From NCBI GenBank assembly GCA_030700025.1, contig JAUYKI010000017.1, positions 2,748 to 66,747 of the forward strand: a DNA stretch of 64,000 bases. Reading direction: 5' to 3'. Source of the stretch: a bacterium (GTDB lineage: Bacteria > Patescibacteriota > Minisyncoccia > UBA6257 > 02-FULL-45-10c). Below, piece by piece: positions 1-62,485 of this stretch. The translations under genes and the position numbers were made by a program. The notes under the pieces are model-generated. The model did no database searches. It had not been told where the DNA came from and was given only the letters and a program-made list of their open reading frames with translations. Within the stretch, counting starts at the first letter, position 1; each line of letters begins with the position of its first letter.

Positions 1-68
1 TACCTTAAATCAGGCATGGGCAGGCGCTATCTAAAAAATAGATTAAAGCGCTTCCTGGCTCTAACGGG

Positions 69-1781
69 ATGACGTCAAAAAATTTAAAAATTATCATTGG
101 GGCTCTTTTGGGAGTCATTGTCATCAGCCTTTTCTATATTTATATCAACGGGCGGCGGAATTTGGACTTGGCGATTGACGCGCCCGAAGAAGCGCTAATC
201 GGCGTGCCTTTTGATTTCAGGGTTGAGTTTAGCAACCAGTCCGGCTCGGTTTTGAAAGACGTTAACTTAACGGTGAGCTTGCCGGACGGAGCGGTATTTG
301 CCGGAAGCGGAGAGGACAAATTATTGGCGAATAAGAACTTGGGCAATGTCGGCGAAGGAAGCCTGATCGCGGAAACTTACCAAATCGTTTTTTTACGAGG
401 CGGTAATACTTCCCAGGAAATAAAATCCGTTATCAGTTACGCGCCGGGCAATTTACGCACGCATTTTGAAACAGTTAAGAAAGCGGAGATAGCTGTCCGG
501 GAAAGCGGAGTGGCAGTGGAGTTGGTAGGCCCGGAAAAAGTTTTTAACGGCGAAGAGTTTAGTTTTGATCTGGTTTATCGGAATGTTTCCGAGCTGGATT
601 TTTCCAATCTGGAGTTGCGGTTGGAATATCCGCCCAGTTTTACTTTTTTGGGCTCTTCTTTGGAGCCGGATAAGGGAAAGAACACCTGGACGTTAGGAGA
701 TTTGCGGAAGGGGTCGGAGGGGACTTTTGCCATCACCGGCAGTATTATCGGTCCGGAGAATGCCACGGCGGATTTTAAGTTTGGCTTGACCGCGAATATT
801 GCCGGTAAGAATTATGACTTGGAGATTAAGCCGTTTACTATGACTATCGCTCCGTCGTCATTGGGCTTGTCGGTGGTTTTGAATAACAAGCCCGAATACA
901 TTGCTAAAGCCAACGACGATTTGAATTACGTTATCAGCTACATTAATAATACCGATACTACTTTGCGGGATGTGGTAATCCGCGCCCAAGTAGTCGGAGA
1001 GATGTTTGATTTGGGCCTTTTGAATACCGACGGTCTGTTCCGTTCCTCGGATAATAAAATTATTTGGAATTCCCAAACAACGCCTTCCTTAGGTGTAGTT
1101 TCGCCCAGCAGCGCCGGCTTTGTTAAGTTCAGCATAAAAACCAAGGCCAGTTATCCAATCCGCCGGTTTGGCGATAAGAATTTTGTTTTGCGGATTAACG
1201 CGGAAATTGAATCGCCGACTCCGCCGGATTCCGGGGCTTCTTCCCGGACTTACAGCCTGGCCCGATTAGACAGCAAAGTTTCTGGTAATATAGTATTAGA
1301 CGTACGAGGATATTTCCGGGACGCGGAGGCGGGAATTTTAAATAAAGGAACTATGCCGCCGCGGGTGGGCCAGCCGACTAATTTTACGGTTCATTGGGTT
1401 TTGAAAAATTTTGCCAATGATATTTCCGGTTTGGAAATCCGTTCGGAGCTGAAAAGCGGAGTGCAATTTACCGGCGTGGCAAAAAGCAATTTCGGCCCCC
1501 TGCCATTTTACGACGAAAAAAACCGCCAATTAGTCTGGCAGTTGGATAAATTGTCGGCAAATAAAGGCGTGGTGGATCAGCCGCTGGAAGCAATATTTCA
1601 GATAGAAGCTACGCCATCGGCGAATCAGGTAGGGAATTATATGCCGCTTCTGGGCGAGACAATGGTTAAAGCGCTGGATAGCTTTACCGGACAGGAATTT
1701 TTAGCTTCCATGTCCGCGCTGACTACCGCTCTGCCCAATGATGTGACTATCGGCTCGCAAGGAGGAGTGGTACAGCCGTAA
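69..1781 (+). CDS. Large cell-surface protein with an N-terminal TM/signal anchor and DUF11-like (CARDB-type) tandem domains
   Basis: 570-aa ORF with a hydrophobic N-terminus (IIIGALLGVIVISLFYIYI) and repeated ~100-aa modules of the type 'LxVxxPxGxxF..GS'. Its ATG sits in a CTAACGGGATG context (see findings). Confidence 0.6.
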   Translation: MTSKNLKIIIGALLGVIVISLFYIYINGRRNLDLAIDAPEEALIGVPFDFRVEFSNQSGSVLKDVNLTVSLPDGAVFAGSGEDKLLANKNLGNVGEGSLIAETYQIVFLRGGNTSQEIKSVISYAPGNLRTHFETVKKAEIAVRESGVAVELVGPEKVFNGEEFSFDLVYRNVSELDFSNLELRLEYPPSFTFLGSSLEPDKGKNTWTLGDLRKGSEGTFAITGSIIGPENATADFKFGLTANIAGKNYDLEIKPFTMTIAPSSLGLSVVLNNKPEYIAKANDDLNYVISYINNTDTTLRDVVIRAQVVGEMFDLGLLNTDGLFRSSDNKIIWNSQTTPSLGVVSPSSAGFVKFSIKTKASYPIRRFGDKNFVLRINAEIESPTPPDSGASSRTYSLARLDSKVSGNIVLDVRGYFRDAEAGILNKGTMPPRVGQPTNFTVHWVLKNFANDISGLEIRSELKSGVQFTGVAKSNFGPLPFYDEKNRQLVWQLDKLSANKGVVDQPLEAIFQIEATPSANQVGNYMPLLGETMVKALDSFTGQEFLASMSALTTALPNDVTIGSQGGVVQP

Positions 1782-1957
1782 TTTAGAATCTAATATCTAG
1801 AATCTAGAAAATAGAATTTATGAAAAATAAAGAACAAAACGATTTAATGGATCCCGTTAGAAGGTGAAGAATCTTCGTTATTTTAGTAAAATTGCCAAGT
1901 ATTATGAAAATTAATAAAAATAATCAAAAAAGTGACGTTGGGGCCCCTTCTAACGGG

Positions 1958-3340
1958 ATGGATAAGGTGATTAGCTTGTGCAAGCGGCGGGGTTTTATTT
2001 TTCCCGGATCGGAAATTTACGGGGGATTGGCAAATTCCTGGGATTACGGCCCATTAGGGGTGGAATTGAAAAATAATATCAAGCAGGAATGGTGGAGGCG
2101 TTTTGTGCATTCCCGGACGGATGTGGTGGGTTTGGATACGGCTTTAATTATGAACACCAAAGTTTGGGAAGCGAGCGGACATTTGAAGGAATTTTCTGAC
2201 CCGTTGGTGGAGTGCGATGTGTGTAAAAATCGGTGGCGTATTGATGCATTGGATCAAATGAGGGCTCGTAAAGCAGATGGCTCATATAGATGTCCAACAA
2301 TGACGGCCTCTTTTATTAAGGGGGGTGCCGATAGTTATTGCTCGGGCAAATTAAGTGAACCACGCCAGTTTAATTTAATGTTCAAAACTTTTTTAGGCCC
2401 AGTGGAAAGCGAAGACAATACAGTTTATTTCCGTCCGGAAACCGCGCAGGGAATGTTCGTAAATTTTAAAAACGTTTTAGAAACTACCCGCAAGCGTTTG
2501 CCGTTCGGCATTGCCCAGGTCGGCAAAGCATTCCGGAATGAAATTACTCCGGGCAATTTTATTTTCCGCACCCGCGAGTTTGAACAAATGGAAATAGAGT
2601 ATTTTACTCACGAAAAAGATTGGAAAGCTCATTTTGAAATGTGGCTGGAAGAAATGAGAAATTGGCTCCGGCATTTGGGGGTGAAGAAATTCCACGAAAC
2701 GGAAATTCCGGACGGCGAACGCGCCCACTATTCCAAGCGGACCGTGGATATTGAATATGACTTTCCGTTCGGCAAAAAGGAGCTTTATGGCCTGGCCTAT
2801 CGGACAGATTTTGATTTAAAAAAACACATGGATAAAAGCGGGGAGGATTTCCGGTATACCGATCCGGAAACTAATGAGAAGTTTTTACCGCATGTTATTG
2901 AGCCGACTTGGGGCGTTGACCGCTCGGTATTGGTTGCATTGCTGGAGGCTTACCATGAAGAAACGGTTAAAAGTGAAAAGTTAAAAGTGAAAAGTGAGGA
3001 CGATGAAGATACGCGGGTAGTTATGAAATTTCCAAAATGGCTGGCGCCGGTTAAGGTGGCAGTTCTGCCTCTTTCCAAGAAAGAAAATCTTTCCAGCCAA
3101 GCTAAAAAAATTCATGAAGATTTGGCAAAAGATTTTGTCTGTGAATATGACGAAACCCAAAGTATCGGCAAGCGCTATCGCCGGCAGGACGAAATTGGAA
3201 CGCCGTTTTGCGTAACAGTTGATTTTGAATCGCTGGAGGATAAAGCGGTAACGGTGAGAGATCGTGATACAATGAAACAAGAGAGAATTTCTATTTCTGA
3301 ATTAAAGAACTATCTAAATCAGAAATTAAATTCCGAATAA
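1958..3340 (+). CDS. glyQS: Glycine--tRNA ligase, dimeric class II (GlyQS type)
   Basis: Motifs RRGFIFPGSEIYGG, WDYGPLGVELKNN and FRNEITPGNFIFRTREFEQMEIEYF. Start chosen at MDKVISLCKRRGF (ATG 1958), because the ORF-track start at 1892 adds a non-conserved N-terminal extension. That ATG lies inside the right arm of a family-C palindromic element. Confidence 0.85.
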   Translation: MDKVISLCKRRGFIFPGSEIYGGLANSWDYGPLGVELKNNIKQEWWRRFVHSRTDVVGLDTALIMNTKVWEASGHLKEFSDPLVECDVCKNRWRIDALDQMRARKADGSYRCPTMTASFIKGGADSYCSGKLSEPRQFNLMFKTFLGPVESEDNTVYFRPETAQGMFVNFKNVLETTRKRLPFGIAQVGKAFRNEITPGNFIFRTREFEQMEIEYFTHEKDWKAHFEMWLEEMRNWLRHLGVKKFHETEIPDGERAHYSKRTVDIEYDFPFGKKELYGLAYRTDFDLKKHMDKSGEDFRYTDPETNEKFLPHVIEPTWGVDRSVLVALLEAYHEETVKSEKLKVKSEDDEDTRVVMKFPKWLAPVKVAVLPLSKKENLSSQAKKIHEDLAKDFVCEYDETQSIGKRYRRQDEIGTPFCVTVDFESLEDKAVTVRDRDTMKQERISISELKNYLNQKLNSE

Positions 3341-4716: not shown

Positions 4717-5745
4717 ATGGAAAAAGGAACTTTATTTGAGATTAGCTGGAGCAGCCTGTGGCGCATAGTGGTAATGCTGGTTTTGGGCAGCATTGTTTTT
4801 TTTGCTAAAGACGTTTTGGTGGCGGTGGCTTTGGCGATAGTCATTTCCTCGGCCTTTGATCCGCTGGTGAGCGCTTTGGAGCGCTGGCGGATTCCCCGGG
4901 TTTTGGGCACTCTTGGCATTTTTATTTTGATTATTGTCGGTTTAGCAATGGTGCTTTACACTATTGTTCCTTTGGCGCTTTCGGAGTTAAACGTTTTGTT
5001 GAATACTTTAACCGAAATTGACGCTCCGTTTTTGGGATTGGAACAATTATCCGCGGTAGTTAAAACCCTTAACGAGGGAATCGGCCGGCTGGCGAATCTT
5101 TTAATCAGCGGCAGCGCTTCTATATTAGATGCCGTATCTCGGTTTTTGGGCGGAATTGCTTTAGTAATCTCGGTTTTTATCCTTTCCTTCTATTTAACTA
5201 TTGACCGGGACGGCATAGAGAACTTCTTAAAGGCAATTTTGCCGCCTAGTTACGAAGATCAGGTTTTAGATATTTATTTCCGGGTCCGGAGGAAGATTGG
5301 CCGCTGGCTGCAGGGCCAGATTTTCTTGAGCTTGAGCATCGGTTTTAGCACCTTTATAGCCCTTTGGAGTTTGGGAATTAAATACAGCCTGATCCTGGGA
5401 ATCTTGGCTGGTATGTTAGAAATTGTTCCGTTTGTGGGCCCGATTTTCAGCGGCGCCATAGCTTTCTTGATTGCCCTTTCGCAGTCATTCTCGTCGGCAA
5501 TTTACGTTCTGATACTTTTTATCGTGATTCAGCAATTAGAAGGGCATTTATTGGTACCGACTTTTATGCGTTTGGCCACCGGCTTGAATCCGGCTTTAAT
5601 TCTGATCGCCCTTTTAATCGGAAGCCAGCTTTTGGGATTTATCGGATTGATTTTGGCGGTTCCAGCCGCGGTGCTGGCGCAAGAAGTTATTAATTTCTGG
5701 TCTTTGTCTAAAAACAAAAAGAAGGCAGCGATGCTAAACGTTTAG
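4717..5745 (+). CDS. AI-2E family transporter (PerM/UPF0118 membrane protein)
   Basis: 342-aa polytopic membrane protein with the AI-2E-like pattern (…QIFLSLSIGF…LEIVPFVGPIFSGAIAFLIAL…). Confidence 0.75.
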   Translation: MEKGTLFEISWSSLWRIVVMLVLGSIVFFAKDVLVAVALAIVISSAFDPLVSALERWRIPRVLGTLGIFILIIVGLAMVLYTIVPLALSELNVLLNTLTEIDAPFLGLEQLSAVVKTLNEGIGRLANLLISGSASILDAVSRFLGGIALVISVFILSFYLTIDRDGIENFLKAILPPSYEDQVLDIYFRVRRKIGRWLQGQIFLSLSIGFSTFIALWSLGIKYSLILGILAGMLEIVPFVGPIFSGAIAFLIALSQSFSSAIYVLILFIVIQQLEGHLLVPTFMRLATGLNPALILIALLIGSQLLGFIGLILAVPAAVLAQEVINFWSLSKNKKKAAMLNV

Positions 5746-5773
5746 AATCTAGAATCTAATATCTAGAATAAGA

Positions 5774-5802: not shown

Positions 5803-6092
5803 AGAACCTATCTCAATAATATTTCCTAACCGCGTTGCTAAGATAAATGCCAGATTTCAAGGCACGACGACGAAATTATGGCCATAGCCACATTGAGGAG
5901 GAGTAACGAAGAAATATGGCATTTAGACCGCAACCCAAAGGGACATAGTAAATTTTGTTCATAACTTCGTTGCTCGGGCTCGACGTAGCCAAGCTACAGT
6001 CTCGCCCCTGCCTGCCGGTAGGCAGGCTCGCGCCTTGTTCTGAATCAAAATTTACTTATATCGCGTTTGGAATTATTATTGGGATAGGTTCT
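5803..6092. repeat. Family-A palindromic intergenic element, copy 1 (~290 bp); its 3' end abuts the metG ATG
   Basis: Terminal inverted repeat AGAACCTATCTCAATAATATTTCC … GGAATTATTATTGGGATAGGTTCT. Internal conserved core GCCATAGCCACAyTGAGGAGG…AACGAAG … CTTCGTTGCTCG. Related copies at 27767-28041 and 44559-44831. Confidence 0.7.
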
Positions 6093-6093
6093 T

Positions 6094-7722
6094 ATGTCTA
6101 AGTTCTATATCACTACCTCTATTGCTTATGTTAATGCCGCCCCGCATATTGGTTTTGCGCTGGAAGCGGTTCAGGCGGACGTAGTTGCCCGCTGGCATAA
6201 GCAGGAGGAAGTCTTCTTTTTAACCGGCACAGACGAGCACGGAGCGAAAATTGCCAGGGCCGCGGCCGCCTCGCGCGGCGAGGCGCCGCCGAAAGCGAGC
6301 CTCGCCACTGGCGGGAGCCTCGCCCCAAAGGGGCGGGAAGCCGACAATAAGTTAATAAAAGAATTTGTTGATCAGCAAGCAGAAAAGTTTAAAGCGTTAA
6401 AAAGCGCGCTTAATTTATCCTGGGACAACTTCATCCGGACTTCCGACCAAAAAGTTCATTGGCCGGTGGCGCAAGAAGTCTGGAAGCGGATTGCGGAGGC
6501 GGGCGATTTATATAAAAAAACTTATCAGGGGCTTTATTGCGTCGGCCACGAAGCGTTTGTTACCCAGAAAGACTTAGTGGCGGAAACCCCGACGCTAGAG
6601 GGTCGGGGCTCCGACCGAAGCGCCGGAGATGCCTTAGTATGTAAAGATCATAAAAAAGCCCCGGAGCTTATAGAAGAAGAAAACTGGTTTTTTAAATTAT
6701 CAAAATATACGAAAGATATTGAATTGCGAATAAAGAATGATGAATTACGGATTATTCCGGAAGGCCGGAAAAATGAGGTTTTGGGCTTGCTTAAGGACGA
6801 TCCGGAAGATGGTTCGGCAAGCTCACCACAAGACGTGAGTTTCTCCCGGCCGAGCAAAGACTTAACCTGGGGCGTTCCGGTGCCGGGCGATGATTCGCAA
6901 ACCATGTATGTCTGGGCAGATGCCCTCACGAACTATATTAGCGGTTATGGCGGAGTTAAAAACTGGGAAAAGCATCCGGCGGATATCCATTTTATCGGTA
7001 AAGATATTTTACGTTTTCACGCGATCATTTGGCCGGCGATGCTTTTATCGGCAAAATTGCCCTTGCCGAAAACTATTTTTGTGCACGGCCATATTTTGTC
7101 TGACGGGCAGAAGATGTCTAAATCCTTAGGCAATGTGGTGGATCCGTTTGAATTAGTAAAAAAGTATGGTTCGGCAAGCTCATCACAAGCTGGCACAGAT
7201 GCAGTTCGGTATTTTCTTTTGCGGGAAATTCCGTCGGCGGAAGACGGCGATTTTAGCTATGAAAAATTTACCCAGCGGTATAACGCGGATTTGGCAAACG
7301 GATTAGGTAATTTTGCGGCCCGGGTTTTAACCCTTGCGAGTAATTACAGCGAATATTTTACAATTCACGCTAACCCCCAGAACGTTCACGAGGTGGTTAA
7401 TGACAAAATTAAGGAAACCCAATTATTAGCTAATAAGAAAATCACGGATTTTAAACTTAACGAAGCACTAGAAATAATTTGGAGCTTAATCCATTTTGGG
7501 GATCAGTATATAAATGAAAAAAAACCATGGGAGCGAAAGGATGAAAAAATAATAGAGGCAAATGGCGTAGCGATTCACAGTTCGGTAGCAATTTTAAATA
7601 ACGTGGCGATTTTACTCCAACCATTTTTGCCGGACACCGCGGATAAAATTACCAAGAGCATCGTTTGGGAAGAAGGTAGGCTGGAAATCCAAAAGACCGA
7701 AAATTTATTTCCGAGATTGTAA
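6094..7722 (+). CDS. metG: Methionine--tRNA ligase (core enzyme, no C-terminal tRNA-binding extension)
   Basis: N-terminal HIGH region (YVNAAPHIGFALEA), KMSKS motif (QKMSKSLGN), and the DAVRYFLLREIP anticodon-binding motif. Contains three in-frame low-complexity insertions (see findings). Confidence 0.9.
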   Translation: MSKFYITTSIAYVNAAPHIGFALEAVQADVVARWHKQEEVFFLTGTDEHGAKIARAAAASRGEAPPKASLATGGSLAPKGREADNKLIKEFVDQQAEKFKALKSALNLSWDNFIRTSDQKVHWPVAQEVWKRIAEAGDLYKKTYQGLYCVGHEAFVTQKDLVAETPTLEGRGSDRSAGDALVCKDHKKAPELIEEENWFFKLSKYTKDIELRIKNDELRIIPEGRKNEVLGLLKDDPEDGSASSPQDVSFSRPSKDLTWGVPVPGDDSQTMYVWADALTNYISGYGGVKNWEKHPADIHFIGKDILRFHAIIWPAMLLSAKLPLPKTIFVHGHILSDGQKMSKSLGNVVDPFELVKKYGSASSSQAGTDAVRYFLLREIPSAEDGDFSYEKFTQRYNADLANGLGNFAARVLTLASNYSEYFTIHANPQNVHEVVNDKIKETQLLANKKITDFKLNEALEIIWSLIHFGDQYINEKKPWERKDEKIIEANGVAIHSSVAILNNVAILLQPFLPDTADKITKSIVWEEGRLEIQKTENLFPRL

Positions 7723-11743: not shown

Positions 11744-11745
11744 TT

Positions 11746-11891
11746 AGAAAGAGTGTTTTATTCTCCCGCTACTGTTCAAACTCCCGGCGAGAGTTTTCAC
11801 TGGGTCTCGGGCTTCGCTCTTTCCGCCTTTGGCGGAAAACCCTGCCCGCTCAGCCCTCAGCCCGCGCTACGGAGAATAAAACACTCTTTCT
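11746..11891. repeat. Family-B palindromic element, copy 1 (~146 bp)
   Basis: Terminal inverted repeat AGAAAGAGTGTTTTATTCTC … GAGAATAAAACACTCTTTCT. The interior is the reverse complement of the copy at 36625-36809 (shared GAGCGAAGCCCGAGACCCAGTGAAAAC and GCTGAGCGGGCAGGG blocks). Confidence 0.7.
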
Positions 11892-11996
11892 AATTTTTAT
11901 GGAAATAAAAAAACCACGGCTTAACGCACCGTGGTATTGATTAGCGCCCTTGCTAATGCCCGCAAGAGTAAAGGGTTATGCCGAAACGGGCCCTGA

Positions 11997-15028: not shown

Positions 15029-15164
15029 CCCGGTATTACAACTTTGATCGTAAAAGTTTCAGCGAGTTATTTAAGAAAAACTATGAAATTACCTAATTTA
15101 TTAATTATAAAGTCGACAAAGCGCTTAATTTTAATTAAGCGCCAATCAAAGTTGTAATACCGGG
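15029..15164. promoter_or_regulatory. 20-bp inverted repeat enclosing a ~95-bp AT-rich segment with an inner perfect palindrome, immediately 5' of the glmS ATG
   Basis: CCCGGTATTACAACTTTGAT at 15029-15048 pairs with ATCAAAGTTGTAATACCGGG at 15145-15164. Inner palindrome AAGCGCTTAATTTTAATTAAGCGCC. The glmS ATG is at 15166. Confidence 0.45.
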
Positions 15165-17630: not shown

Positions 17631-18701
17631 TTAGATGCCGAGATAATCCAAGAATTTTCCAAGTTGGGCGTTTTTGGGGCTATGGCTGGTTTTTTCGTTT
17701 GGCGGATTAATAACCATAGATCCGCGAATCAGCTGGGTGTCCAGAAAAGCATCTTTCAGTTTTTTAAAAACTCCGGTTAATTTTTTGGTTTGGGATGTAA
17801 GGAAAAAACTGCTATTAGCAGAACTCCACAAAGCATAAGTATCAAAGCCTAGCGCTTTGGCGGCGGTAAATCCTAGAGGAATTTGATTGCGTTGTTTGAG
17901 CCGTCCGGTTTTTGGATCTTGCGTAGTTTCCACGATGTTTAATAATACTTTTCCCAATTCGGCGCTTTCCGGCTTGGCTCCGCCTTCTGCCATGCGTTTT
18001 TTGGCGGCTTCAATTCCGTTTAAAGATATTTGGACCAATCCTTTATTTTGAAGGCAGATATCCCATAAATTAACCTTTTTACCGCCGGATTCTTTTACCG
18101 TGATTTGTTTGGCCTCTTCTTCGGCAAATGGCTGGCGCGGATCCCGGCCCTCCTGGAAGAATTTGGCAATTAAGCTTAGTGGCAGGGCTTTATAGATTCC
18201 ATAAGGAGTCCGCCACCAGTCATTTTTTAAAAACTCTTCGTCAATCGGATAATCTAAATTATCTATTTGGGTTACAAACTCGGAAAAATTATCCAGCCAC
18301 TTTTCCTTTTTCAGCATTCCGGCTTTAGTCAGGGATTCATAAACAATTGCGGTGGCGGAAGTGGGCTTGCCTTGTTCCGGACCGTGATGGTCAAAGAAAA
18401 TACTGCCGTCTTCTTCCATGGTTAATTCCGGCTTGCCCCCGGTATCAATATGCACCGCGCCGGCCAGGTCTTTTCCTTTTGGCACGAAAGTTACCATTTT
18501 ATAATTAATGCCCGCTAAATCCATTAAAAAGACTCCGCCCATCGCGTCTAAGTCGGGCCGGAGCTTTAATTGGCTTTTTCCGCCTTCGTGGCGGAAATCA
18601 CCGTGGATAACCAGCTGGTCAAAGCCGGCCTTCAGGGTTTCCGCTACCCGTTCTAATGTTTTTTGCTCTGATTTTTCCGGATTGGCTTTAAATTGTTCCA
18701 T
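17631..18701 (-). CDS. Hypothetical protein; weak resemblance to DHH-family phosphoesterases
   Basis: 356 aa with HID…FFDHHGP segment (DHH motif-III like); other DHH motifs are not clear. Confidence 0.5.
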   Translation of the reverse strand: MEQFKANPEKSEQKTLERVAETLKAGFDQLVIHGDFRHEGGKSQLKLRPDLDAMGGVFLMDLAGINYKMVTFVPKGKDLAGAVHIDTGGKPELTMEEDGSIFFDHHGPEQGKPTSATAIVYESLTKAGMLKKEKWLDNFSEFVTQIDNLDYPIDEEFLKNDWWRTPYGIYKALPLSLIAKFFQEGRDPRQPFAEEEAKQITVKESGGKKVNLWDICLQNKGLVQISLNGIEAAKKRMAEGGAKPESAELGKVLLNIVETTQDPKTGRLKQRNQIPLGFTAAKALGFDTYALWSSANSSFFLTSQTKKLTGVFKKLKDAFLDTQLIRGSMVINPPNEKTSHSPKNAQLGKFLDYLGI

Positions 18702-19148
18702 CCCTCACCTTTAAAGAACTGCGACGCTATCGCAATTCTTGATTTTAATTAAATGACTTTTTATTGTTGAAAACATAGTTTTGAGTATTAACTTGGCTTC
18801 GGACGCATTATTGGTTCTTTAAGGGTGAGGGATTACTTTCTTTACGATAGCTTAAAACGGCTAACTTGGAAATGGGGGAATACATGGGGTACTTGACAAA
18901 ATAAGCCCTATATATTATCATATAAACTATGGAAATAAATTCCAATCGACAATTTAATATACAAGTTAAACCTCTTGGCACCCACTATGGGATGGTTTCG
19001 GTTTTTAGCCAAGGCGGTTTTTATATTAATTGGAGAATAGAGTAATTTAAACTTCAAAAGATATTGATCTTATTTAAAGAACGCCTCGGCTAGATAAACC
19101 GAGGCGTTTTGGTTTATCTAGAAAGCACCTTGAAAAGGAGAAAAGAAA

Positions 19149-26656: not shown

Positions 26657-27073
26657 ATGAAGGAAGAAAATGACCTTTCCTACCTTCAGGCAGTAAAGGA
26701 AGACCTTAGCGATATTCCGATTATGGACTTCGGCAATCTGGCGCTTAGCGATGATTTAAAGATTAATACCCGGCAGACGATTTATACGGTTCGTTTTCTG
26801 GGCCCGCCTTCTCAAAAGAAACGCCTGGCCGGCATTCAAAGCACCGGCAAGCATCTTTTTGACGGTCGAGTTACATTGATTGGTTCGGAAGTAAAATCTT
26901 CTCCCGGCGGCGCGCTGACGGTTTTGGAAGGGGGATTGATGGTTGGATTTTCGGCTGTGTTCTTTGATATCGTTGAAGAAAGATTGTTGAAATTGCCGGT
27001 TACTCAGGAAGTTTGGCTGAACGGAAAAAGAATTTTGCCGGATTTCTCCAGAGTTCCCGCAAGGGAAAAATAA
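26657..27073 (+). CDS. Hypothetical protein
   Basis: 138-aa ORF with GGAGGGG RBS. Its stop codon abuts a family-C element. Confidence 0.45.
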   Translation: MKEENDLSYLQAVKEDLSDIPIMDFGNLALSDDLKINTRQTIYTVRFLGPPSQKKRLAGIQSTGKHLFDGRVTLIGSEVKSSPGGALTVLEGGLMVGFSAVFFDIVEERLLKLPVTQEVWLNGKRILPDFSRVPAREK

Positions 27074-27147
27074 ATCCCGCTTAGAAGCAGGCCGCCCCAA
27101 GGTGGCTGTAGCCACTCGCTAAAAGCGAGGGCGGCTTCTAACGGGAT
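27074..27147. repeat. Family-C palindromic element (short copy, no downstream ATG use)
   Basis: ATCCCGCTTAGAAGC … GCTTCTAACGGGAT arms, with nested GC stems inside. Confidence 0.55.
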
Positions 27148-27280
27148 AAACAAACACTCCGCATAGCGGGGTGTTTTACTTTGGCTTGTCCTGCCTGCCC
27201 TGAGTCGTATCGAAGGGAGTTTGCTGGCAGTGAGCTTGTCGAATCTGCCGAAGGGGCTTGCGTTGAGCAAGGTCGAAGTG

Positions 27281-27766: not shown

Positions 27767-28041
27767 GGGGTCTGTCATAAAATTACTGGCTTAATTTGGA
27801 GGCCTGGATTTGAGACAGGTACGAGACGCGACGACGACAACGTGTCTGAATGAAGGACACGTTGAGGAGGAGTAACGAAGTAGCTGGCCAAAGATAGGCC
27901 TCCCCGAAGGGCCAAAGCATTTTATGGGCTGCGACTGCGTCACTCGTCGTCAATGTAGCTAAAGCTACAATCTCCTCCTCGTTTCTTGTCTCGCTCCAAA
28001 AATGCTATGGTAAATAAGTCATTAATTTTATGACAGACCCC
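27767..28041. repeat. Family-A palindromic element, copy 2
   Basis: 19-bp terminal inverted repeat GGGGTCTGTCATAAAATTA … TAATTTTATGACAGACCCC. This outer stem differs from copies 1 and 3, but the core GTTGAGGAGGAGTAACGAAG … CTCCTCCTCG is conserved. Confidence 0.65.
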
Positions 28042-28957: not shown

Positions 28958-30130
28958 TTGAAAACTGATAAAAAGGCGGTTACGATGGAACCGAAAAAGG
29001 GCTTGCGTGATGTTCCGGCCGGACAGACCCGGCTTTGCTTGTTGGATGAAGCCAACAGCGAACTTTATTATTGCGGTTATTCTATCAGGGATTTAGTTGA
29101 GCATTATCCCTATGAAGCCGTGGCTTATTTGATGCTTCACGGCGAATTGCCTTCCGAGTCGGAATTAAAAATTTTCACCCGTCGCCTGGTGAATAACGCA
29201 TGGAATATGCCTCAAGTGGTAGTTAAGAGTTTGGAGTTAAAAACTCCATTCACTGATGCCCATCCGATGGATAAATTGTCACTGATAATCCGGGCTGACG
29301 GCAATACTCACGGCATTCCGTTTTCTACGCCATCGTTAGAGAATAATTTGGACTTAGCGAAATCTTTGATTGCCCGGTTGCCTTTAATGGTTGCTTTGCT
29401 GGGCGGCGCTAGCCGGAATTATTTTGACTATTTTGATCCAGACCGCACGCTGATGGAAAATTTTGTAGATTCTTTGCGGATCCCGAACGAAGGCGGTTTG
29501 GCAACGAAATTAATGAATGTCGCGTTTATTCTTTACGCGGAACATGAATTCAACGCCGGGTCTTTCGCGGTTCGGGTGGCAGCCAGCGCGCACACCGATA
29601 TTTATTCCGCGGTTTTGGGAGGATTAGGAACTTTGCGCGGTACTCGCCACGGCGGAGCCAATGAAGAAGTAATGAAGAAGATGCTGGAAATCGGAACACC
29701 GGAAAAAACGCGCGAATATTGCGACCGATTTTTGTCTCAGCCGGGAGCGCGCTTGCCGGGATTTGGCCACGCGGTTTATACCATCGGCGATCCGCGGGTA
29801 GCGGTTCTCCGCCCGCTGGTAAAAGATTTGTCGGTCCGAAAGAACGATATGCGCTGGTATGAAATTGCTGTCGCGCTGGAAGAATATATGGCGGAGCGTT
29901 CTCGGGGAAAGTCTAAGCCCTTGCCGGCTAACACTGACCTTTGGACGGCGCCGTTATATCACTTGCTGGGCATCCCGATTCGTCTTTTCACCCCGCTTTT
30001 CGCCGCCTCCCGGGTTTCCGGCTGGTGCGGACATTATTTGGAAGTGCGGCATGTTTACAACGAACCGATTCTTCGGCCGCGCGCCGAATATGTCGGATCC
30101 GCTCCTCGGAAAGTAATCCCTCACTCTTGA
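28958..30130 (+). CDS. Citrate synthase-family protein (citrate/2-methylcitrate synthase-like)
   Basis: HGGANEEV catalytic-His block and GFGHAVY motif; 390 aa. The last 4 codons plus the stop (IPHS*) are encoded by a family-D element. Confidence 0.75.
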   Translation: MKTDKKAVTMEPKKGLRDVPAGQTRLCLLDEANSELYYCGYSIRDLVEHYPYEAVAYLMLHGELPSESELKIFTRRLVNNAWNMPQVVVKSLELKTPFTDAHPMDKLSLIIRADGNTHGIPFSTPSLENNLDLAKSLIARLPLMVALLGGASRNYFDYFDPDRTLMENFVDSLRIPNEGGLATKLMNVAFILYAEHEFNAGSFAVRVAASAHTDIYSAVLGGLGTLRGTRHGGANEEVMKKMLEIGTPEKTREYCDRFLSQPGARLPGFGHAVYTIGDPRVAVLRPLVKDLSVRKNDMRWYEIAVALEEYMAERSRGKSKPLPANTDLWTAPLYHLLGIPIRLFTPLFAASRVSGWCGHYLEVRHVYNEPILRPRAEYVGSAPRKVIPHS

Positions 30131-30191
30131 AAGAATTAACCTCGCTTATAGCGAGGTTTTTTATAGCAACGTTATTTCAAAAGTGAGGGAT
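30116..30191. repeat. Family-D palindromic element containing a terminator hairpin
   Basis: ATCCCTCACTCTTGAAA … TTTCAAAAGTGAGGGAT arms. Inner hairpin AACCTCGCTTATAGCGAGGTT followed by TTTTAT. Confidence 0.65.
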
Positions 30192-39373: not shown

Positions 39374-39381
39374 GATGAATC

Positions 39382-39504
39382 CCACACATAACAAAGACTA
39401 TAGGATATTTAAGCTAATAACTATGATAGTAGAATTAAAATGTCACATTAAATTAAAAGGCAAGGATTTGCGGAAAACTTCGCAGTCTTTGTTATGTGTG
39501 GGAT
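39382..39504. repeat. Palindromic element exactly filling the pilN-pilO-like spacer (19-bp perfect arms)
   Basis: CCCACACATAACAAAGACT … AGTCTTTGTTATGTGTGGG. The right arm overlaps the start region of the downstream gene. Confidence 0.6.
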
Positions 39505-40078
39505 GAAAGCTTCTACTCAAAGAGCCTTGGGATTGTTGGGAACCGGACTATTGTTTGTCGGAGCGGCGGCGATTTTTGCTTTTTTATCGGTTCCGGCTTA
39601 TCAGGACATCCAGGATTTGAAATCCACGCTGTCGTCTAAATCAACATTATTTCAAAATCAATCCCGCGATTTGACCCAGGTTCAAAACTTGTTATCGCAA
39701 TATCAGGGAGTGGTCCGGCTGGAAGAATCTTTAAATTTGGCTCTGCCTACCAAAGAAGAGTCCGGAAGCATCGTGAATCAGCTGGATGTTATTACTAAGT
39801 CCAACGGCGTTTTAATTAAATCCCTCGGGCTGGATTATGTTCCGGCCGGACGGACCGCCGGGACCGCTTTGGTAAAAAATGTTTCTACTTTGCGGCTGAC
39901 AATAAAATTAGCCGGTTCTTATTCCGCGTTTAAAAAAGCTTTAGCCGCGCTGGAAACCAATATTCGCATCATGGATTTAGTGAGTTTGAAGATGGAGCCG
40001 GTTAGCGCCGCGCCCGGCCAGGAATCCGCGGATTTATTTGATTACACCTTAGTTATTAATACTTATTATCAATTGTAA
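39503..40078 (+). CDS. PilO-like bitopic pilus assembly protein
   Basis: MKASTQRALGLLGTGLLFVGAAAIFAFL TM segment followed by a periplasmic domain. The track start at 39494 lies inside the palindrome arm. Confidence 0.5.
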   Translation: MKASTQRALGLLGTGLLFVGAAAIFAFLSVPAYQDIQDLKSTLSSKSTLFQNQSRDLTQVQNLLSQYQGVVRLEESLNLALPTKEESGSIVNQLDVITKSNGVLIKSLGLDYVPAGRTAGTALVKNVSTLRLTIKLAGSYSAFKKALAALETNIRIMDLVSLKMEPVSAAPGQESADLFDYTLVINTYYQL

Positions 40079-40392: not shown

Positions 40393-40396
40393 GAAT

Positions 40397-40520
40397 GGAT
40401 CCCGTTAGAGATAGGCCGTCAAAGGCGGCCGTAGCTCGTCCGTTCTAATGGCGCTCAGAGTTTAAAATAAAAACAAAGGTTAATAATATAAATCTAATTT
40501 AGTTATCTCTAACGGGATGG
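40397..40520. repeat. Family-C palindromic element; the right arm contains the pilB ATG
   Basis: GGATCCCGTTAGAG … CTCTAACGGGATGG; the pilB ATG is at 40517. Confidence 0.65.
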
Positions 40521-42250
40521 ATGCTCAAGTTTTACTTAAAGCTCTTGTTGATAAGGAACTTCTAAAACAGGATCAGGCGGATAAGCTGATTCAGGAATCT
40601 TCGGCTGGGCAAAAATCCGCTGAAGATTTAATTTACGAAAACCGGCTGGTGGACGAAACCGAAGTGGCGAAAACCAAAAGCCAGCTTTTAAAAATACCTT
40701 ATAAGAAAATTTCGGCGGATACTCTGGATAAAGAATTTTTAAAAGTTATTCCGATTGAAACCGCCCAAACTTATAAAATAATTCCTATTTCCCGGACGGA
40801 AAATATGCTGGTGGTGGGAATGGTGAATCCGGACGACCAAAAAGCCCAGGACGCGCTCCGGTTTGTCGCTAAGCAATTGCACTCCAATCTTGGAGTTTAT
40901 TTGATTTCACACGGCGATTTGGACGCAGTCTTAAAAAAATATTCTCCGTTTAAAGATGAAGTAGAAGCGGCAGTGCGGGCTTTGGGGACTAGGCCGGGCA
41001 GGAAAGTCGGCCAGGCAATTCAACTGGAAGAGGGAACCGCGGTTACGGAAGAAGCGCCGGTAATTAAAATTGTCGCTTCAACGCTTAGAGAAGCGGTCAA
41101 CGTCGGAGCTTCGGACATTCACGTTGAGCCAGAGCGGGAAAAATTCCGGATTCGTTTCCGGATTTCCGGAGATTTGCAGACCATCAGCGAAATGCCGATT
41201 GAATTGCACCAGCCGATAGTTTCCCGCATTAAAGTTATGTCCAAGTTAAAATTAGATGAAAACCGCGTTCCGCAAGACGGCCGGTTTCGCAGCCAGGTAT
41301 CGGGCCGGGACATTGATTTCCGGATCGCGACTTTTCCAACTCCAGCCGGAGAAAAAGTGGCAATCCGGGTTCTGGATTCTTCTACCGGCTTACGGACTTT
41401 AAATGAATTGGGATATAGCGATCGGAATGTAAAAATTGCCATGGAGGCGATTGAGCGCCCGTTTGGCACCGTGGTCATTACCGGTCCGACCGGTTCGGGA
41501 AAATCCACCACTCTTTATTCGTTGATGCAGATTTTAAATCAGCCGGACGTTAACATCGTCAGCTTGGAAGATCCGGTGGAGTATTATATTGACGGCGCCA
41601 ACCAGTCGCAGGTTCGGCCGGAAATCGGCTATGATTTCGCCGCCGGTTTGCGGCAAATTTTGCGGCAAGACCCGGACGTGATTATGGTTGGAGAAGTGCG
41701 GGACGTGGAAACTGCCACTTTGACCATCCACGCCGCTTTAACCGGACACATCGTATTAACCACCTTGCACACTAATAATGTAGTGGGCGTAGTGCCCCGC
41801 TTATTGGATTTAAAAGTAGACGCGTTTTTATTGCCGCCGGCGGTAAATTTGATGGTGGCCCAGCGCTTGCTTTCCAAGCTTTGCCCGAAATGCAAAAAGC
41901 CCGAACCTGCTCCGGGAAATATCGCCGAAATGATCAAAAAAGAATTGGAAAAATTGCCGGCAGACGTCAGGGCGGAATTAAAATCTAAAGAACCGTATAA
42001 AATCTATCGGTCGGCCGGATGCGCTTCTTGTAAAAATAAAGGGACAGCCGGGCGGATGGCCATTTCGGAGCTTTTAAAAATGACTCCACAATTGTCGGAA
42101 ATTATCAGCGCCGGCCCGACCGAGAACCGGATTTTAGAAGAGGCTAAGCGCCAAGGAATGGTAACGATGCGGCAAGACGGAATTATTAAAGCCCTGGACG
42201 GATTATTGGGAATGGAGGAGGTATTGCGAGAGACTGCGGAGCTGACCTAA
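40517..42250 (+). CDS. pilB: Type IV pilus assembly ATPase PilB (GspE family)
   Basis: N-terminal T2SS-E N domain; Walker A GPTGSGKST; Asp/His boxes; tetracysteine CPKC…CASC. Confidence 0.9.
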   Translation: MDAQVLLKALVDKELLKQDQADKLIQESSAGQKSAEDLIYENRLVDETEVAKTKSQLLKIPYKKISADTLDKEFLKVIPIETAQTYKIIPISRTENMLVVGMVNPDDQKAQDALRFVAKQLHSNLGVYLISHGDLDAVLKKYSPFKDEVEAAVRALGTRPGRKVGQAIQLEEGTAVTEEAPVIKIVASTLREAVNVGASDIHVEPEREKFRIRFRISGDLQTISEMPIELHQPIVSRIKVMSKLKLDENRVPQDGRFRSQVSGRDIDFRIATFPTPAGEKVAIRVLDSSTGLRTLNELGYSDRNVKIAMEAIERPFGTVVITGPTGSGKSTTLYSLMQILNQPDVNIVSLEDPVEYYIDGANQSQVRPEIGYDFAAGLRQILRQDPDVIMVGEVRDVETATLTIHAALTGHIVLTTLHTNNVVGVVPRLLDLKVDAFLLPPAVNLMVAQRLLSKLCPKCKKPEPAPGNIAEMIKKELEKLPADVRAELKSKEPYKIYRSAGCASCKNKGTAGRMAISELLKMTPQLSEIISAGPTENRILEEAKRQGMVTMRQDGIIKALDGLLGMEEVLRETAELT

Positions 42251-60925: not shown

Positions 60926-62373
60926 TGCATTTACATGACTTAACTATAAAAAAATTCCACGAAGGTTTGGTGAATAAAGAATTTTCCGCGCATGAAATGG
61001 CGCAGGAAGTTTTTGATTTAATTAAAGCGGAGGATGGAAAAATTCACGCGTATTTAAGTTTGAATGAGCGAATGGCGTTACGGCAAGCGGAAGAAGCCGA
61101 TTTAAAAATTGCCAAAAATGAGCCGGTGGGTTTTTTAACCGGCGCGCTTATGGCGATTAAAGATAATATTTTAATTGAGGGACTGCCGTGCACTTCGGCC
61201 TCTAAAATTTTAGAAAATTATACTGCCAGCTATGACGCAACGGTGATTAAGAAATTAAAATCCAGCGGCGCCGTATTTTTAGGTAAAACTAATATGGATG
61301 AATTCGCCATGGGTTCGTCTACGGAAAATTCCGCATTTGGGCCAACCAAGAATCCCCATGATTTGACTAGAGTTCCGGGGGGATCGTCCGGCGGTTCAGC
61401 AGCGGCAGTGGCCAGTCATATGGCTGTGGCGGCGCTGGGTTCGGACACCGGCGGTTCTATCCGCCAGCCTGCGGCCTTTTGCGGAGTTGTCGGCCTAAAG
61501 CCTACCTATGGCGCGGTTTCCCGTTATGGAGTGACGGCGATGGCTTCCAGCTTGGATCAGATCGGACCCTTTACGAAAACCGTGGAAGACGCGGCGATTT
61601 TATTTAATGAAATAAAAGGAGTGGATGCCATGGATTCCACAAGTTCGCCACAAGCTAGCGAGATTAAAGAAGAAGATTTATTAAAACCCAAGCTGGAAGA
61701 TATTCGAAAATTGCGGATAGGCATTCCGAAAGAATATTTCGTGGAAGGGCTTTCCGCGGAAATTGGCAGCGCCGTAGAAAAAGCCATTCAAGATATTAAA
61801 AGCTTGAAAGTAGAAATCAAAGAAATCAGCCTGCCTCACACGAAATACGCGCTTTCTTGTTATTATATTATTATGCCGGCGGAAGTGAGTTCCAACCTGG
61901 AACGATTTGAGGGGATTCGCTATGGCAGCCGCCAATCGGCGGAAAAATTGATAGATTTATATAAGAAAAATCGGGAAGCCGGATTCGGAGATGAATCCAA
62001 GCGCAGAATTTTATTAGGAACTTTCGTTCTGTCTTCCGGCTACTATGACGCTTATTATGCCAAGGCTCAAAAAGTCAGGCGATTAATTGCCCAAGACTTT
62101 GACCAGGTATTTAAGGAAGTAGATTTGGTGCTGACGCCGGTTACGCCGACTCTGCCGTTTAAGTTCGGAGAAAAAACCGATAATCCATTGGAAATGTATC
62201 TTTCCGACGCGTTTACTATTCCGGTGAACTTAGCCGGTTTGCCGGCGATGTCTTTGCCGGTTAATCAAACTAAAAAAGATAAATTGCCAGTCGGCTTTCA
62301 GCTGATTGGCCGGCATTTTAAAGAGGCGGATATTTTAGGATTAGGGCAGTATTACGAAAAATTATCCCGTTAG
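60925..62373 (+). CDS. gatA: Glu/Asp-tRNA amidotransferase subunit A (amidase signature family)
   Basis: Amidase signature GGSSGGSAAAVA…GSDTGGSIRQPA; 482 aa. The TAG stop lies inside the left arm of a family-C element. Confidence 0.95.
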   Translation: MHLHDLTIKKFHEGLVNKEFSAHEMAQEVFDLIKAEDGKIHAYLSLNERMALRQAEEADLKIAKNEPVGFLTGALMAIKDNILIEGLPCTSASKILENYTASYDATVIKKLKSSGAVFLGKTNMDEFAMGSSTENSAFGPTKNPHDLTRVPGGSSGGSAAAVASHMAVAALGSDTGGSIRQPAAFCGVVGLKPTYGAVSRYGVTAMASSLDQIGPFTKTVEDAAILFNEIKGVDAMDSTSSPQASEIKEEDLLKPKLEDIRKLRIGIPKEYFVEGLSAEIGSAVEKAIQDIKSLKVEIKEISLPHTKYALSCYYIIMPAEVSSNLERFEGIRYGSRQSAEKLIDLYKKNREAGFGDESKRRILLGTFVLSSGYYDAYYAKAQKVRRLIAQDFDQVFKEVDLVLTPVTPTLPFKFGEKTDNPLEMYLSDAFTIPVNLAGLPAMSLPVNQTKKDKLPVGFQLIGRHFKEADILGLGQYYEKLSR

Positions 62374-62485
62374 AAGCCGCGATCGCTTTAATTAATAATA
62401 TTATTTCCATTTATTATGCATGGTCGTTATTATAAAAATATATTACGTAGAATCGCTTTGATCGCGATCTGCTTCTAACGGGATG
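62364..62485. repeat. Family-C palindromic element spanning from the gatA stop codon to the ATG of the next gene
   Basis: ATCCCGTTAGAAGCCGCGATCGC … GATCGCGATCTGCTTCTAACGGGATGG. The TAG at 62371-62373 is the gatA stop; the ATG at 62483 is the downstream start. Confidence 0.7.

Follow-up and report, generated by a model that had tools for sequence, protein, structure and literature searches.

A probable MITE-like hairpin element of Patescibacteria that regenerates start codons by target duplication

Introduction

Correia elements (CREE/NEMIS) of Neisseria are small, non-coding, multi-copy sequences that have 26-bp TIRs, are associated with a TA duplication, and lie mostly just upstream of genes. 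Their length is roughly 100–200 bp (204 bp in a MITE review). RNase III cleaves the TIR hairpin of co-transcribed Correia elements, whose interior can invert (PMC10969869). The elements that we describe here as family C are likewise small, non-coding, bounded by TIRs, numerous, and mostly positioned just upstream of genes, but have an unrelated TIR sequence, an ATGRA repeat, and a CPR host. In particular, Correia elements are restricted to one genus and have no known start-codon target, whereas family C has a target containing ATG, is superphylum-wide, and has arms that carry in-frame-safe codons and stops.

Other described elements share part of this architecture. Prokaryotic MITEs such as ERIC, RUP, Nezha, and MITEAba12 are, like family C, short and multi-copy, with TIRs, a direct repeat, no transposase gene, and a presence that varies between relatives. 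In contrast to MITEs, family-C copies in the same genome agree in arms and architecture but differ in the interior, the two arms show the covariation of a stem, and no parent IS with the same ends was found, either in ~1 Mb of DNA or among 20 ORFs of the 64,000-nt stretch of DNA analysed here (the window). Start codons are nowhere mentioned in a 2024 MITE review. REPIN/RAYT systems and IS200/IS605-derived palindromic elements (PATEs) share with family C hairpin repeats with conserved arms and a looser loop, insertion beside a 4–5-nt motif, and long persistence within lineages. Family C differs from REP in that its arms, ATCCCGTTAGARNY, are not self-complementary and have no GTAG head, and from PATEs in having a single end-to-end stem instead of two subterminal hairpins and an apparent target duplication. 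Integron attC sites have the order RYYYAAC...GTTRRRY, extrahelical bases, and a position at 3′ cassette ends next to an integrase, whereas family C reads GTTAGAR...YTCTAAC, forms a perfect stem, and is found at the 5′ side of housekeeping genes whose synteny is conserved.

A further group of insertions is tolerated, as family C appears to be, through how it is read: Rickettsia palindromic elements (RPEs) are read in frame, and bypass elements (byp and the T4 gene 60 bypass) have matching codons on either side of a hairpin. Family-C copies instead lie at a gene boundary, not within an ORF, and only 2 of 27 in-frame copies are open; family C requires no bypass because the right-hand repeat is itself the start codon. 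Finally, a stem beside a start codon, combined with stops within a few bases of the AUG, is a layout that supports coupling, as in T4 gene 38/25 and in ATGA termination-reinitiation. Family C shares the T4 gene 38/25-type layout, with coupling that is putative, but here a mobile element brings the layout to hundreds of unrelated genes.

Results

The window, 64 kb in length, contains five copies of family C, all on the + strand, and the arm positions of the original prediction are borne out: three full copies have perfect 14–15-bp arms, one copy is short, and one is half a copy. The half copy (58..71) consists of the right arm only, GCTCTAACGGGAT, and its partner left arm would precede base 1 of the window. 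The G that follows the right arm completes ATG 69–71, the start of the DUF11 gene (69–1781), and the copy (58–70) ends ...GGGATGA, not ATGG as had been claimed. The full element at glyQS (1847..1963) has perfect 14-bp arms (1851–1864 and 1946–1959), an AT-rich interior, and a flanking direct repeat ATGGAT (1847–1852 and 1958–1963); the right ATG (1958–1960) is the glyQS start, and an upstream uORF (...MDPVRR*) has its TGA stop just within the left arm. The full element at pilB (40395..40522) has perfect 15-bp arms (40399–40413 and 40504–40518) and the same direct repeat ATGGAT (40395–40400 and 40517–40522), with the right ATG at 40517 serving as the pilB start; its interior is inverted relative to most copies, placing the P2 hairpin TAGGCCG..CGGCCGT (40412–40432) next to the left arm. 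The full element at the gatA junction (62364..62485) has perfect 14-bp arms (62364–62377 and 62471–62484) and belongs to a long-range-P2 subtype, in which an inner helix CGCGATCGC (62378–62386) pairs with GATCGCG (62460–66). This copy lacks the left ATG repeat and spans exactly from stop to start, as had been proposed: the gatA TAG (62371–62373) is in the left arm, and ATG 62483–62485 opens a 212-aa membrane ORF.

The right-arm ATGs at 69, 1958, 40517, and 62483 thus open the DUF11, GlyRS, PilB (T2SSE), and 212-aa ORFs assigned to them. NCBI protein models agree, with GlyRS (460 aa) beginning at ATG 1958 and GatA (482 aa) ending at the arm TAG, and an independent Logan contig (L127) is 100% identical over 60886–63891. 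Gene callers disagree at element sites; the Logan ORF after gatA is called 33 codons short. The short copy (74 nt; 27070..27151, arms 27074–27088 and 27134–27147) lies at a stop codon, and the claim that the arms donate start codons does not extend to it: TAAAC, not ATG, follows the right arm. Its direct repeat is ATAAA (27070–27074 and 27146–27150), the left repeat holding the TAA stop (27071–27073) of ORF 26657–27073. One C is bulged in its left arm, and its GC-rich interior forms two hairpins (RNA fold −44.8 kcal/mol, z −6.4).

Besides family C, the window contains further families of hairpin elements; taken together, all these elements occupy ~4% of it (summed element lengths) and a large share of its non-coding DNA. 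A sister family with the same termini and target is represented at 39375..39508 (+ strand), with 21-bp arms ATCCCACACATAACAAAGACT...AGTCTTTGTTATGTGTGGGAT, a flanking direct repeat ATGAA, and an RNA fold z of −7.6. The right ATG of this copy (39503) is a pilO-like start, and a 43-codon uORF runs from its left ATG to a TGA that overlaps the right ATG. The family-C arm matches in the window are not explained by chance. Specifically, ATCCCGTTAGAAG has 10 matches with up to 2 mismatches, compared with 1.6 expected and with 0 of 100 shuffles reaching 10, and CTAACGGGAT has 8 matches, all exact, where the estimated chance is ~0.1 for an exact 10-mer in 128 kb.

A wider search for arm pairs found the exact pair ATCCCGTTAGA…TCTAACGGGAT at no fewer than 120 loci in species-representative genomes, at least 120 against ~2 estimated chance matches, so family C is not a local oddity. 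Among the matches listed, nearly all are from Patescibacteria (CPR). They cover many CPR classes, and Saccharibacteria and Paceibacteria share family C arm for arm. The pair constitutes the outer 11 bp of the 14-bp TIRs and is identical across very divergent lineages; element length is mostly 100–125 bp (74–121 bp for window copies, 74–133 bp overall). Phage carriage as the main vector was rejected, since 2.9 million viral contigs yielded only 1 match. The suspicion that this is an undescribed family stands within the scope of Rfam 15 and the papers searched. An Rfam search of the window returned 6 tRNAs only, with no family at gathering threshold for the element, and the best permissive matches were miRNA-precursor models at 17 bits, against thresholds of 60–100. 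A literature search by exact arm sequence and keywords returned nothing relevant, and family C is not among the hairpins treated in a genome-language-model preprint on non-coding DNA hairpins.

Oriented copies have the consensus ATG[A/G]-ATCCCGTTAG…CTAACGGGAT-G[A/G]A, from which it follows that a direct repeat (A)TGRA, 4, 5, or 6 bp in length, flanks the element. Among the matches listed, the flanks of 132 oriented copies are ATGA/GAA in 72, ATGG/GGA in 23, and crossed in 1. Position 4 of the repeat (A/G) is therefore the same on the left and right in 95 of 96 copies, and it does not track arm subtype. The target repeat is A-T-G-(A/G)-A, or rarely ATAAA at a stop codon; seven copies among the matches listed, 62364 being one, lack the left ATG repeat. 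Tabulation of gene starts showed that, in 121 of 132 copies (92%; more than 100 genomes, among the matches listed), an ORF of 60 or more codons begins at the right-arm ATG, whereas for ATGRA sites overall in this DNA the figure is only 30%. The stop codon of the upstream gene frequently coincides with the TGA in the left ATGA. Two outcomes that the original prediction had named as counting against it, an absence of start enrichment and a 5′ UTR shared by one paralogous family, were looked for and neither was found; the 119 downstream proteins fall into 105 clusters.

Comparison of orthologous loci revealed that syntenic relatives are empty at glyQS, DUF11, and pilB. At glyQS, the ATGGAT that stands on both sides of the element in the window occurs just once in relatives: the empty site in L121, L122, and L123 reads AATTTAATGGATAAGGTG, and the window reads GATTTAATGGAT-element-ATGGATAAGGTG. 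The element is also absent from the DUF11 start in L121 and L122, from the region upstream of pilB in L128 and L129, and, for the sister family, from the pilO-like start in relatives. At the gatA junction, L124 is empty, and L125 has an element with identical junctions and an interior that cannot be aligned with that of the window copy. The proposed donation of start codons holds in part: an intact ATG is present at the right arm, but it does not arise de novo, having pre-existed at the target and been duplicated. At most the A or AT of the right ATG is element-derived. Because the target is duplicated, the left repeat keeps the old start (or the TGA of an ATGA overlap), and the right repeat gives the gene an intact ATG.

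Near-identical copies lie beside unrelated genes in L068, L062, and L102, and tandem arrays with one shared ATGA occur in L060, L104, L012, and L010; both indicate mobility. The junction between tandem copies is exactly CGGG-ATGAAT-CCCG, and the interior is found in both orientations (51 to 6). Searches for an autonomous element with the same ends in ~1 Mb found 152 short arm pairs, 22 solo arms, and no long pair, and none of the 20 window ORFs scanned is a transposase, Y1/HUH, RAYT, or recombinase gene.

RNA folding closes the arms, as had been anticipated (z-scores −3.2 to −6.4). The interiors, described at first as unrelated, are not: copies have in common a 14-bp stem, a covarying second hairpin, and a fixed polarity. 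Stem positions 12–14 are paired in 97–98% of copies, compared with 64–67% in shuffles, with 4–5 pair types each; pairing ends after 14 bp, compensated arm variants exist (for example, GTCCCG...CGGGAC), and covariation is also seen in the P2 hairpin, ACGG-NNN...NNN-CCUR. The stem closes with the A and U of the AUG as its last pair. On the sense strand, 24 mismatches are G.T and 11 are A.C. A reading as a translational-occlusion device would fit this 14-bp stem, which is conserved, covaries, and has the A and U of the AUG base-paired.

The three full copies contain no terminator-like site, and an internal promoter is unsupported, since sigma-70-like sites in these copies are no commoner than in shuffles. 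The −10-like hexamers are equal on both strands (194 each); with the arm TTAGAR as a −35 and a −10 at 15–19 nt (5 or 6 of 6 matches), there are 18 forward and 6 reverse cases, a mild enrichment. A conserved small protein in the interior was rejected, as peptide starts and sequences differ; peptides ending ...LIAICF* recur only because P2 and P1 DNA is conserved.

The frame of the left ATG is open to the right-arm stops in 35 of 103 copies, compared with 11 and 8 for the other frames and 9.8 +/− 3.0 in shuffles. With related copies removed, it is open in 30 of 90 (9 and 5 for the others), and in 23 of 42 when element length sets the frame onto the arm TAA. The left arm is stop-free in this frame (M-N/D-P-V-R...), and the right arm carries a TAA 4 nt upstream of the ATG, joined in copies with an ATGA repeat by a TGA that overlaps this ATG. 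This pattern suggests read-through and re-initiation. In two thirds of copies, however, the uORF is interrupted early by stops, so pass-through cannot be general. An in-frame N-terminal extension is not a candidate, with only 2 of 27 in-frame copies open. SD-like motifs precede only ~12% of genes, and a −10-like hexamer peaks 6–7 nt upstream of ATGs, which suggests leaderless starts. An SD before the left ATG is uninformative as proof of an ancestral RBS because SD-like motifs are rare genome-wide.

Discussion

Our analysis indicates that family C is probably a non-autonomous, MITE-like mobile hairpin element, Patescibacteria-wide in distribution, that regenerates start codons by target duplication. 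The original prediction of a REP/MITE-like element that re-creates starts on insertion is backed by the repeat, the empty sites, the dispersed near-identical copies, and the start association. The hallmarks of a MITE are present: a length below ~500 bp (74–133 bp, with short uORFs only), TIRs (perfect 14-bp arms in three window copies and in 132 copies elsewhere), a direct repeat on either side, copies at dispersed sites, and sites that are filled in some relatives and empty in others. The arms appear built to let translation through. A ribosome would start at the old ATG, often at a leaderless mRNA 5′ end or at the end of an upstream cistron, melt the stem, terminate beside the real start, and re-initiate there; on transcripts without such pass-through, the stem would occlude the AUG.

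Several findings count against the MITE-like reading. The ~1 Mb of DNA and the 20 window ORFs searched contain no autonomous element or transposase with these ends, and seven copies have no left ATG repeat. The outer 11 bp are the same in very divergent lineages, and at the gatA junction the window and L125 retain them around interiors that cannot be aligned; such arm identity exceeds expectation for a decaying selfish copy and points to a host-level function or another maintenance mechanism. The covariation of positions 12–14 is not expected for a transposase that binds duplex DNA, and the early uORF stops in two thirds of copies speak against general pass-through. The arm conservation and the covariation also suit a cis-regulatory RNA module kept by selection on the host, acting as a translational gate or as a processing hairpin for RNase III and recognised by a conserved CPR factor, for which mobility only distributed the copies. 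The perfectly conserved arms around a saturated interior, the covarying stem and P2 hairpin, the 51-to-6 bias of interior polarity relative to the gene, the excess of sense-strand G.T over A.C mismatches (24 to 11), the enriched openness of the uORF frame, and the cleavage of Correia TIR hairpins by RNase III in Neisseria (PMC10969869) are all in line with such a module. The closest relatives, however, lack the element at glyQS, DUF11, and pilB, the genes downstream are unrelated to one another, the tandem and nested arrangement of copies has a selfish look, and the G.T bias is weak; we regard this explanation as possible but doubtful. A single-strand element of the IS200/IS605-PATE or REPIN/RAYT-like kind, inserting 3′ of ATGRA without duplication and bringing its own 3′ ATGRA, would make the start wholly element-derived. 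By the criteria that define PATEs, the fixed target and the 51:6 orientation agree, and the end-to-end stem and the concordant repeat disagree. The specific short target is always on one side, orientation to it is almost fixed, covariation of the hairpin fits structure-specific recognition of ssDNA, and the empty sites fit as well as they do with duplication. In addition, IS608/ISDra2-type elements use the lagging-strand template, which for co-oriented genes is the sense strand. What makes this reading unlikely is that the A/G at position 4 matches in 95 of 96 copies independently of arm subtype, a match that duplication explains directly, together with the single end-to-end hairpin in place of two subterminal ones and the absence of a Y1/HUH gene among the 20 window ORFs scanned.

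The tandem junction CGGG-ATGAAT-CCCG, in which the direct repeat would be the core, is what would be seen if family C were an excisable cassette, with a circular form TCTAACGGG-ATGRAT-CCCGTTAGA that recombines site-specifically with ATGRA(T) at starts through a lox/dif-like site (9-bp inverted arms, 6-bp core); the relatives' pilB starts, ATGGAATCCCGC, resemble such a core plus arm. Target flanks in general have no arm-like sequence, however, no recombinase is nearby (20 window ORFs scanned), and a lox/dif-like site has no need of a 14-bp covarying stem, which renders the cassette quite improbable. We give practically no credence to the remaining explanations, namely integron attC-like arms, a shared 5′ UTR of a paralogous family, and chance similarity. 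The arm GTTAGAR / YTCTAAC does resemble the attC core GTTRRRY / RYYYAAC, and interior length varies as in attC, but the order of the core-like motifs is reversed and the flanking genes are housekeeping genes in conserved synteny. A shared 5′ UTR is excluded by downstream genes that are mutually unrelated (105 clusters for 119 proteins), and chance by the shuffles in the window and the exact-pair loci, at least 120 in number.

Alongside the MITE-like reading, we tentatively consider a bolder possibility: a hairpin module, spread over the whole superphylum, that would home in on start codons, perhaps at a melted leaderless TSS, and that may have been domesticated as a translational gate. Translation of the uORF (M-N/D-P-V-R...) from the ancestral AUG would open the 14-bp stem that hides the regenerated AUG, end at the arm stops, and hand the ribosome to the gene; a conserved CPR factor, not a conventional transposase, would keep the 11-bp arms invariant.

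Patescibacteria have tiny, gene-dense genomes that are thought to be poor in mobile elements. Landing on a start codon and rebuilding the ATG is a route for selfish DNA in a genome with almost no spare room. Family C matters for gene calling in MAGs, where start sites are disputed among callers, CPR contigs can be recognised simply by its invariant arms, and it bears on how CPR genes that are poor in SD motifs and apparently leaderless are translated. Should stem and uORF indeed gate translation, family C would be a ready-made portable regulator.

Family-C copies in the window

All family-C copies of the window lie exactly at the arm positions of the original prediction. Perfectly paired arms are present at 1851–1864/1946–1959 (14 bp), 40399–40413/40504–40518 (15 bp), and 62364–62377/62471–62484 (14 bp, with a second inner helix); a short copy at 27074–27147 has one bulged C in its left arm; and a lone right arm occupies 58–70, at the window edge, where the predicted ending ATGG is corrected to ATGA. 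The family-C 13-mer occurs 10 times in the window with at most 2 mismatches, versus 1.6 expected, a count reached by none of the shuffles, and 8/8 window matches to CTAACGGGAT are exact. Upon RNA folding, the arms close the structure in each full copy (z-scores −3.2 to −6.4). An independent assembly reproduces the copy at 62364 without any difference.

As proposed, the right-arm ATG (...CGGGATG) is the first codon of DUF11 (69), GlyRS (1958), PilB (40517), and a 212-aa ORF (62483), and the left arm supplies the gatA stop. In particular, the public GlyRS protein model (460 aa) begins at the right-arm ATG, and the public GatA model (482 aa) ends at the TAG within the left arm. No ATG follows the right arm of the 27074 copy. 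For the gene after gatA, the Logan gene call (L127, a Logan contig, 1697; window 62483) places the start 33 codons further downstream than the arm ATG; relatives align from the arm ATG (MAKPPE.. / MAGFKKPE..), and gene callers disagree at such sites.

Distribution

We searched a single genome from each species for ATCCCGTTAGA, a gap of 73–103 nt, and TCTAACGGGAT, with the flanks left unspecified. The arm-pair pattern is present at at least 120 loci, versus about 2 by chance (our estimate). Among the matches listed, nearly all are Patescibacteria MAGs of many classes, the hosts including Saccharibacteria, Paceibacteria, and Kaiser-, Nomura-, Wolfe-, Levy-, Kerfeld-, Yanofsky-, Harrison-, and Moranbacteria; lengths cluster at 102–125 nt; and a few records carry the labels Omnitrophota, WOR-3, or Sedimentisphaerales (labels as recorded). 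The GlyRS, GatA, and PilB of the window share 73–78% identity with their best CPR relatives.

Only one viral contig among the 2.9 million scanned carries a family-C copy (IMG/VR contig L126, 3734–3829). The flanks of this copy are the common ATGA/GAA; it also carries a nested hairpin variant (CCCTGTTAGAGG/CCTCTAACAGGG) and a third copy resembling an arm, and AAGGAGG lies 11 nt upstream of its right ATG. Rfam 15 contains no family-C match at gathering or permissive thresholds, and neither Rfam 15 nor full-text literature searches with the arm sequences and related keywords returned a description, in agreement with the suggestion that the family is undescribed. A 2024 review of prokaryotic MITEs nowhere mentions start codons (PMC10969869).

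Flanking repeats, start codons, and insertion sites

Oriented by their flanks, family-C copies read ATG[A/G], ATCCCGTTAG ... CTAACGGGAT, G[A/G]A. Among copies from the matches listed, ATGA/GAA flanks occur 72 times, ATGG/GGA 23 times, and a crossed combination once; left and right are likewise concordant in the variants ATGCA, ATGTA, and ATAAA. This concordance indicates that (A)TGRA is a direct repeat outside the palindrome. In the window, the repeats are ATGGAT at 1847/1958 and 40395/40517, and ATAAA at 27070/27146.

Among the matches listed, 121 of 132 copies have a right ATG that begins an ORF of 60 codons or more, compared with 30% of ATGRA sites overall in that DNA; several of the exceptions are copies that come first in a tandem pair. 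The arms are not the 5′ UTR of a single paralogous family: the 119 downstream proteins are unrelated, falling into 105 clusters, and GlyRS, which occurs three times among them, follows a different interior each time. ATGA is the classic 4-nt stop/start overlap, and the upstream gene often stops at the TGA of the left ATGA; in 7 cases, including gatA of the window, it stops at a TAG inside the left arm.

Comparison of orthologous loci reveals the empty site. The two nearest GlyRS relatives keep the gene order RecO, DUF11, GlyRS, M16 peptidase, AI-2E, with a DUF11–glyQS spacer of only 9–10 nt, and read AATTTAATGGATAAGGTG, versus GATTTAATGGAT[CCCGTTAG...CTAACGGG]ATGGATAAGGTG in the window. The target is thus present once when empty and twice when filled, and the ATG pre-existed. 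The DUF11, pilB, and pilO starts are also empty in relatives; in the window, a sister family sharing the ATGAA repeat occupies the pilO start. The element-free pilB of two relatives (L128 and L129, position 2501) starts ATGGAATCCCGC; its resemblance to the element left junction, ATGGA(T)-(A)TCCCG, could be coincidence, footprint, or target preference.

Near-identical copies precede unrelated genes within single contigs (L068, L062, L102), and the likeness stops at the repeat. In tandem arrays (L060, L104, L012, L010), neighbours share one ATGA, as re-insertion into a regenerated target would give. The L010 array has three elements, all separated by the identical GA of ATGA: two family-C copies and, between them at 6020–6157, a sister element whose arms are ATCCCGTAGTAG...CACTACGGGAT. 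Arms counted across about 1 Mb of loci form 152 short pairs versus 22 solo arms, and neither these loci nor 20 window ORFs revealed a long element with family-C ends or a transposase.

Stem and interior architecture

The interiors had been described as unrelated; instead, copies have in common a stem, a second hairpin, and a polarity. The main stem comprises 14 bp, with pairing falling to 44% at position 15. Stem positions 12–14 vary (AAG, GAC, AAT, CCT, GGC, others), yet are 97–98% paired, versus 64–67% in shuffles, and degenerate copies contain compensated pairs (GTCCCG/CGGGAC, ATCACG/CGTGAT). A hairpin, ACGG-NNN...NNN-CCUR, with covarying inner pairs, adjoins the right arm in most copies; in another subtype, with 62364 among its members, this helix has its 5′ strand beside the left arm and lengthens the main stem. 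In 51 copies the CCTR motif lies inside the right arm; 6 others, 40399 among them, have it inverted and inside the left arm. The sense strand is A-rich, and an internal YGGGAW, 20–40 nt from the left end, is present in about a third of copies (42 versus 7 on the opposite strand). Sense-strand stem mismatches are G.T in 24 cases versus A.C in 11, which hints weakly that the hairpin of the sense strand, as RNA or ssDNA, is what matters.

Other repeat elements in the window

Four other hairpin elements likewise end on start codons: the sister-family element at 39379–39504 (ATCCCACAC... arms, ATGAA repeat, pilO-like start); 15029–15164 (CCCGGTATTAC... arms, TATG flanks, glmS start, MCGIVG); 37644–37753 (arms CATAAATTTA/TAAATTTATG), terminating on the ATG at 37751; and 18700–18833 (ATCCCTCACC arms), located at the start ATG of gene 17631–18701 (minus strand). 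The start association in this genome is therefore not confined to family C.

Larger elements of 272–290 bp, without a match in Rfam, lie at 5803–6092, 44559–44830, and 27767–28041. The former two have terminal inverted repeats of 22–38 nt (GAACCTATC[C/T]CAATAATA...) and share 72% identity along their entire length; the third has different ends (GGGGTCTGTCATAAAATTA) and has a short GC-rich interior block, GAGGAGGAGTAACGAAG, in common with 5803–6092. These elements have extensive secondary structure (the 380-nt segment 5731–6110, which includes 5803–6092, has an MFE of about −138 kcal/mol). A two-copy repeat (11744–11893 and 36623–36810) has arms ending ...TATTCTCC / GGAGAATA... and GC-rich interiors that are 75% identical in opposite relative orientation. 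The short motif TAGAATCTAGAATCTAATATCTAGAAT directly follows the stop codons of DUF11 (1784–1815) and an AI-2E-like gene (5743–5770), and occurs once inverted near 28737 (minus strand). Gene-3′-end elements, ATCCCTCACT... / ...AGTGAGGGAT, lie at 30115–30192 and 63107–63245; the ORFs upstream (28958–30130 and 62483–63121) both stop at the TGA within the left arm (CTCTTGA).

Nature of the family

The direct repeat, the empty sites, and the near-identical copies at unrelated genes support the original prediction of a REP/MITE-like element that re-creates start codons, and family C is best filed as a MITE-like element with a start-codon-containing target, spanning the whole CPR. Three observations fit a plain selfish MITE poorly. 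At the gatA junction, the window and a relative (L125) have identical, atypical junctions, with GatA ending ...YYEKLSR* through the arm TAG; the arms are perfect in both, the interiors are unalignable, and another relative (L124) is empty. Either the arms are selected at a fixed locus or the same site was hit twice alike. The covariation of the arms and the identity of their outer 11 bp across the superphylum ask for more than transposase binding.

Because of these misfits, three alternatives to the MITE-like element stay alive. One is a regulatory module of the host or an RNase III module; another is transposition as a single-stranded hairpin, as in IS200/IS605 or REPIN elements, with the right ATGRA then part of the element. 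Lox-like site-specific recombination draws on the tandem junction CGGG-ATGAAT-CCCG, a 6-bp core between two 9-bp inverted arms. An attC reading was rejected: the order of the core-like motifs is the opposite of that in attC, and the genes are housekeeping genes in synteny.

Proposed translation across the element

Family C sits between the old and the regenerated start codon, and the layout of its arms is probably one that lets translating ribosomes pass. In the left-ATG frame, the left arm reads RAT-CCC-GTT-AGA and is stop-free; the right arm has TAA 4 bases before the ATG, and TGA overlaps the ATG where the repeat is ATGA. Among the matches listed, 35 of 103 copies have an interior free of stops in this frame, versus 11 and 8 in the other frames and 9.8 ± 3.0 in composition-matched shuffles; with related copies removed, the counts are 30 of 90 versus 9 and 5. 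Of the 42 copies whose length brings this frame onto the arm TAA, 23 are open.

Across the scanned loci and the window, SD-like motifs precede about 12% of long ORFs. Hexamers resembling a −10 element, often GGGnTAnAAT, peak sharply 6–7 nt before start codons (long ORFs, 17%; left ATGs, 25%; random ATGs, 4%), which suggests leaderless mRNAs for a sizeable share of CPR genes.

From this layout we infer that a ribosome starting at the old AUG, or arriving from an upstream cistron that ends at the left UGA, would melt the 14-bp stem, terminate beside the real AUG, and re-initiate there; without its passage, the stem would hide the AUG. Translational occlusion by this stem, as originally proposed, is plausible. 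Pass-through cannot be the whole story, since two thirds of copies have early stops in the frame opened by the left ATG. If true, pass-through would make start-codon insertions nearly harmless, with later use for control possible. Elements of this kind may also cause systematic mis-annotation of start codons in CPR MAGs.
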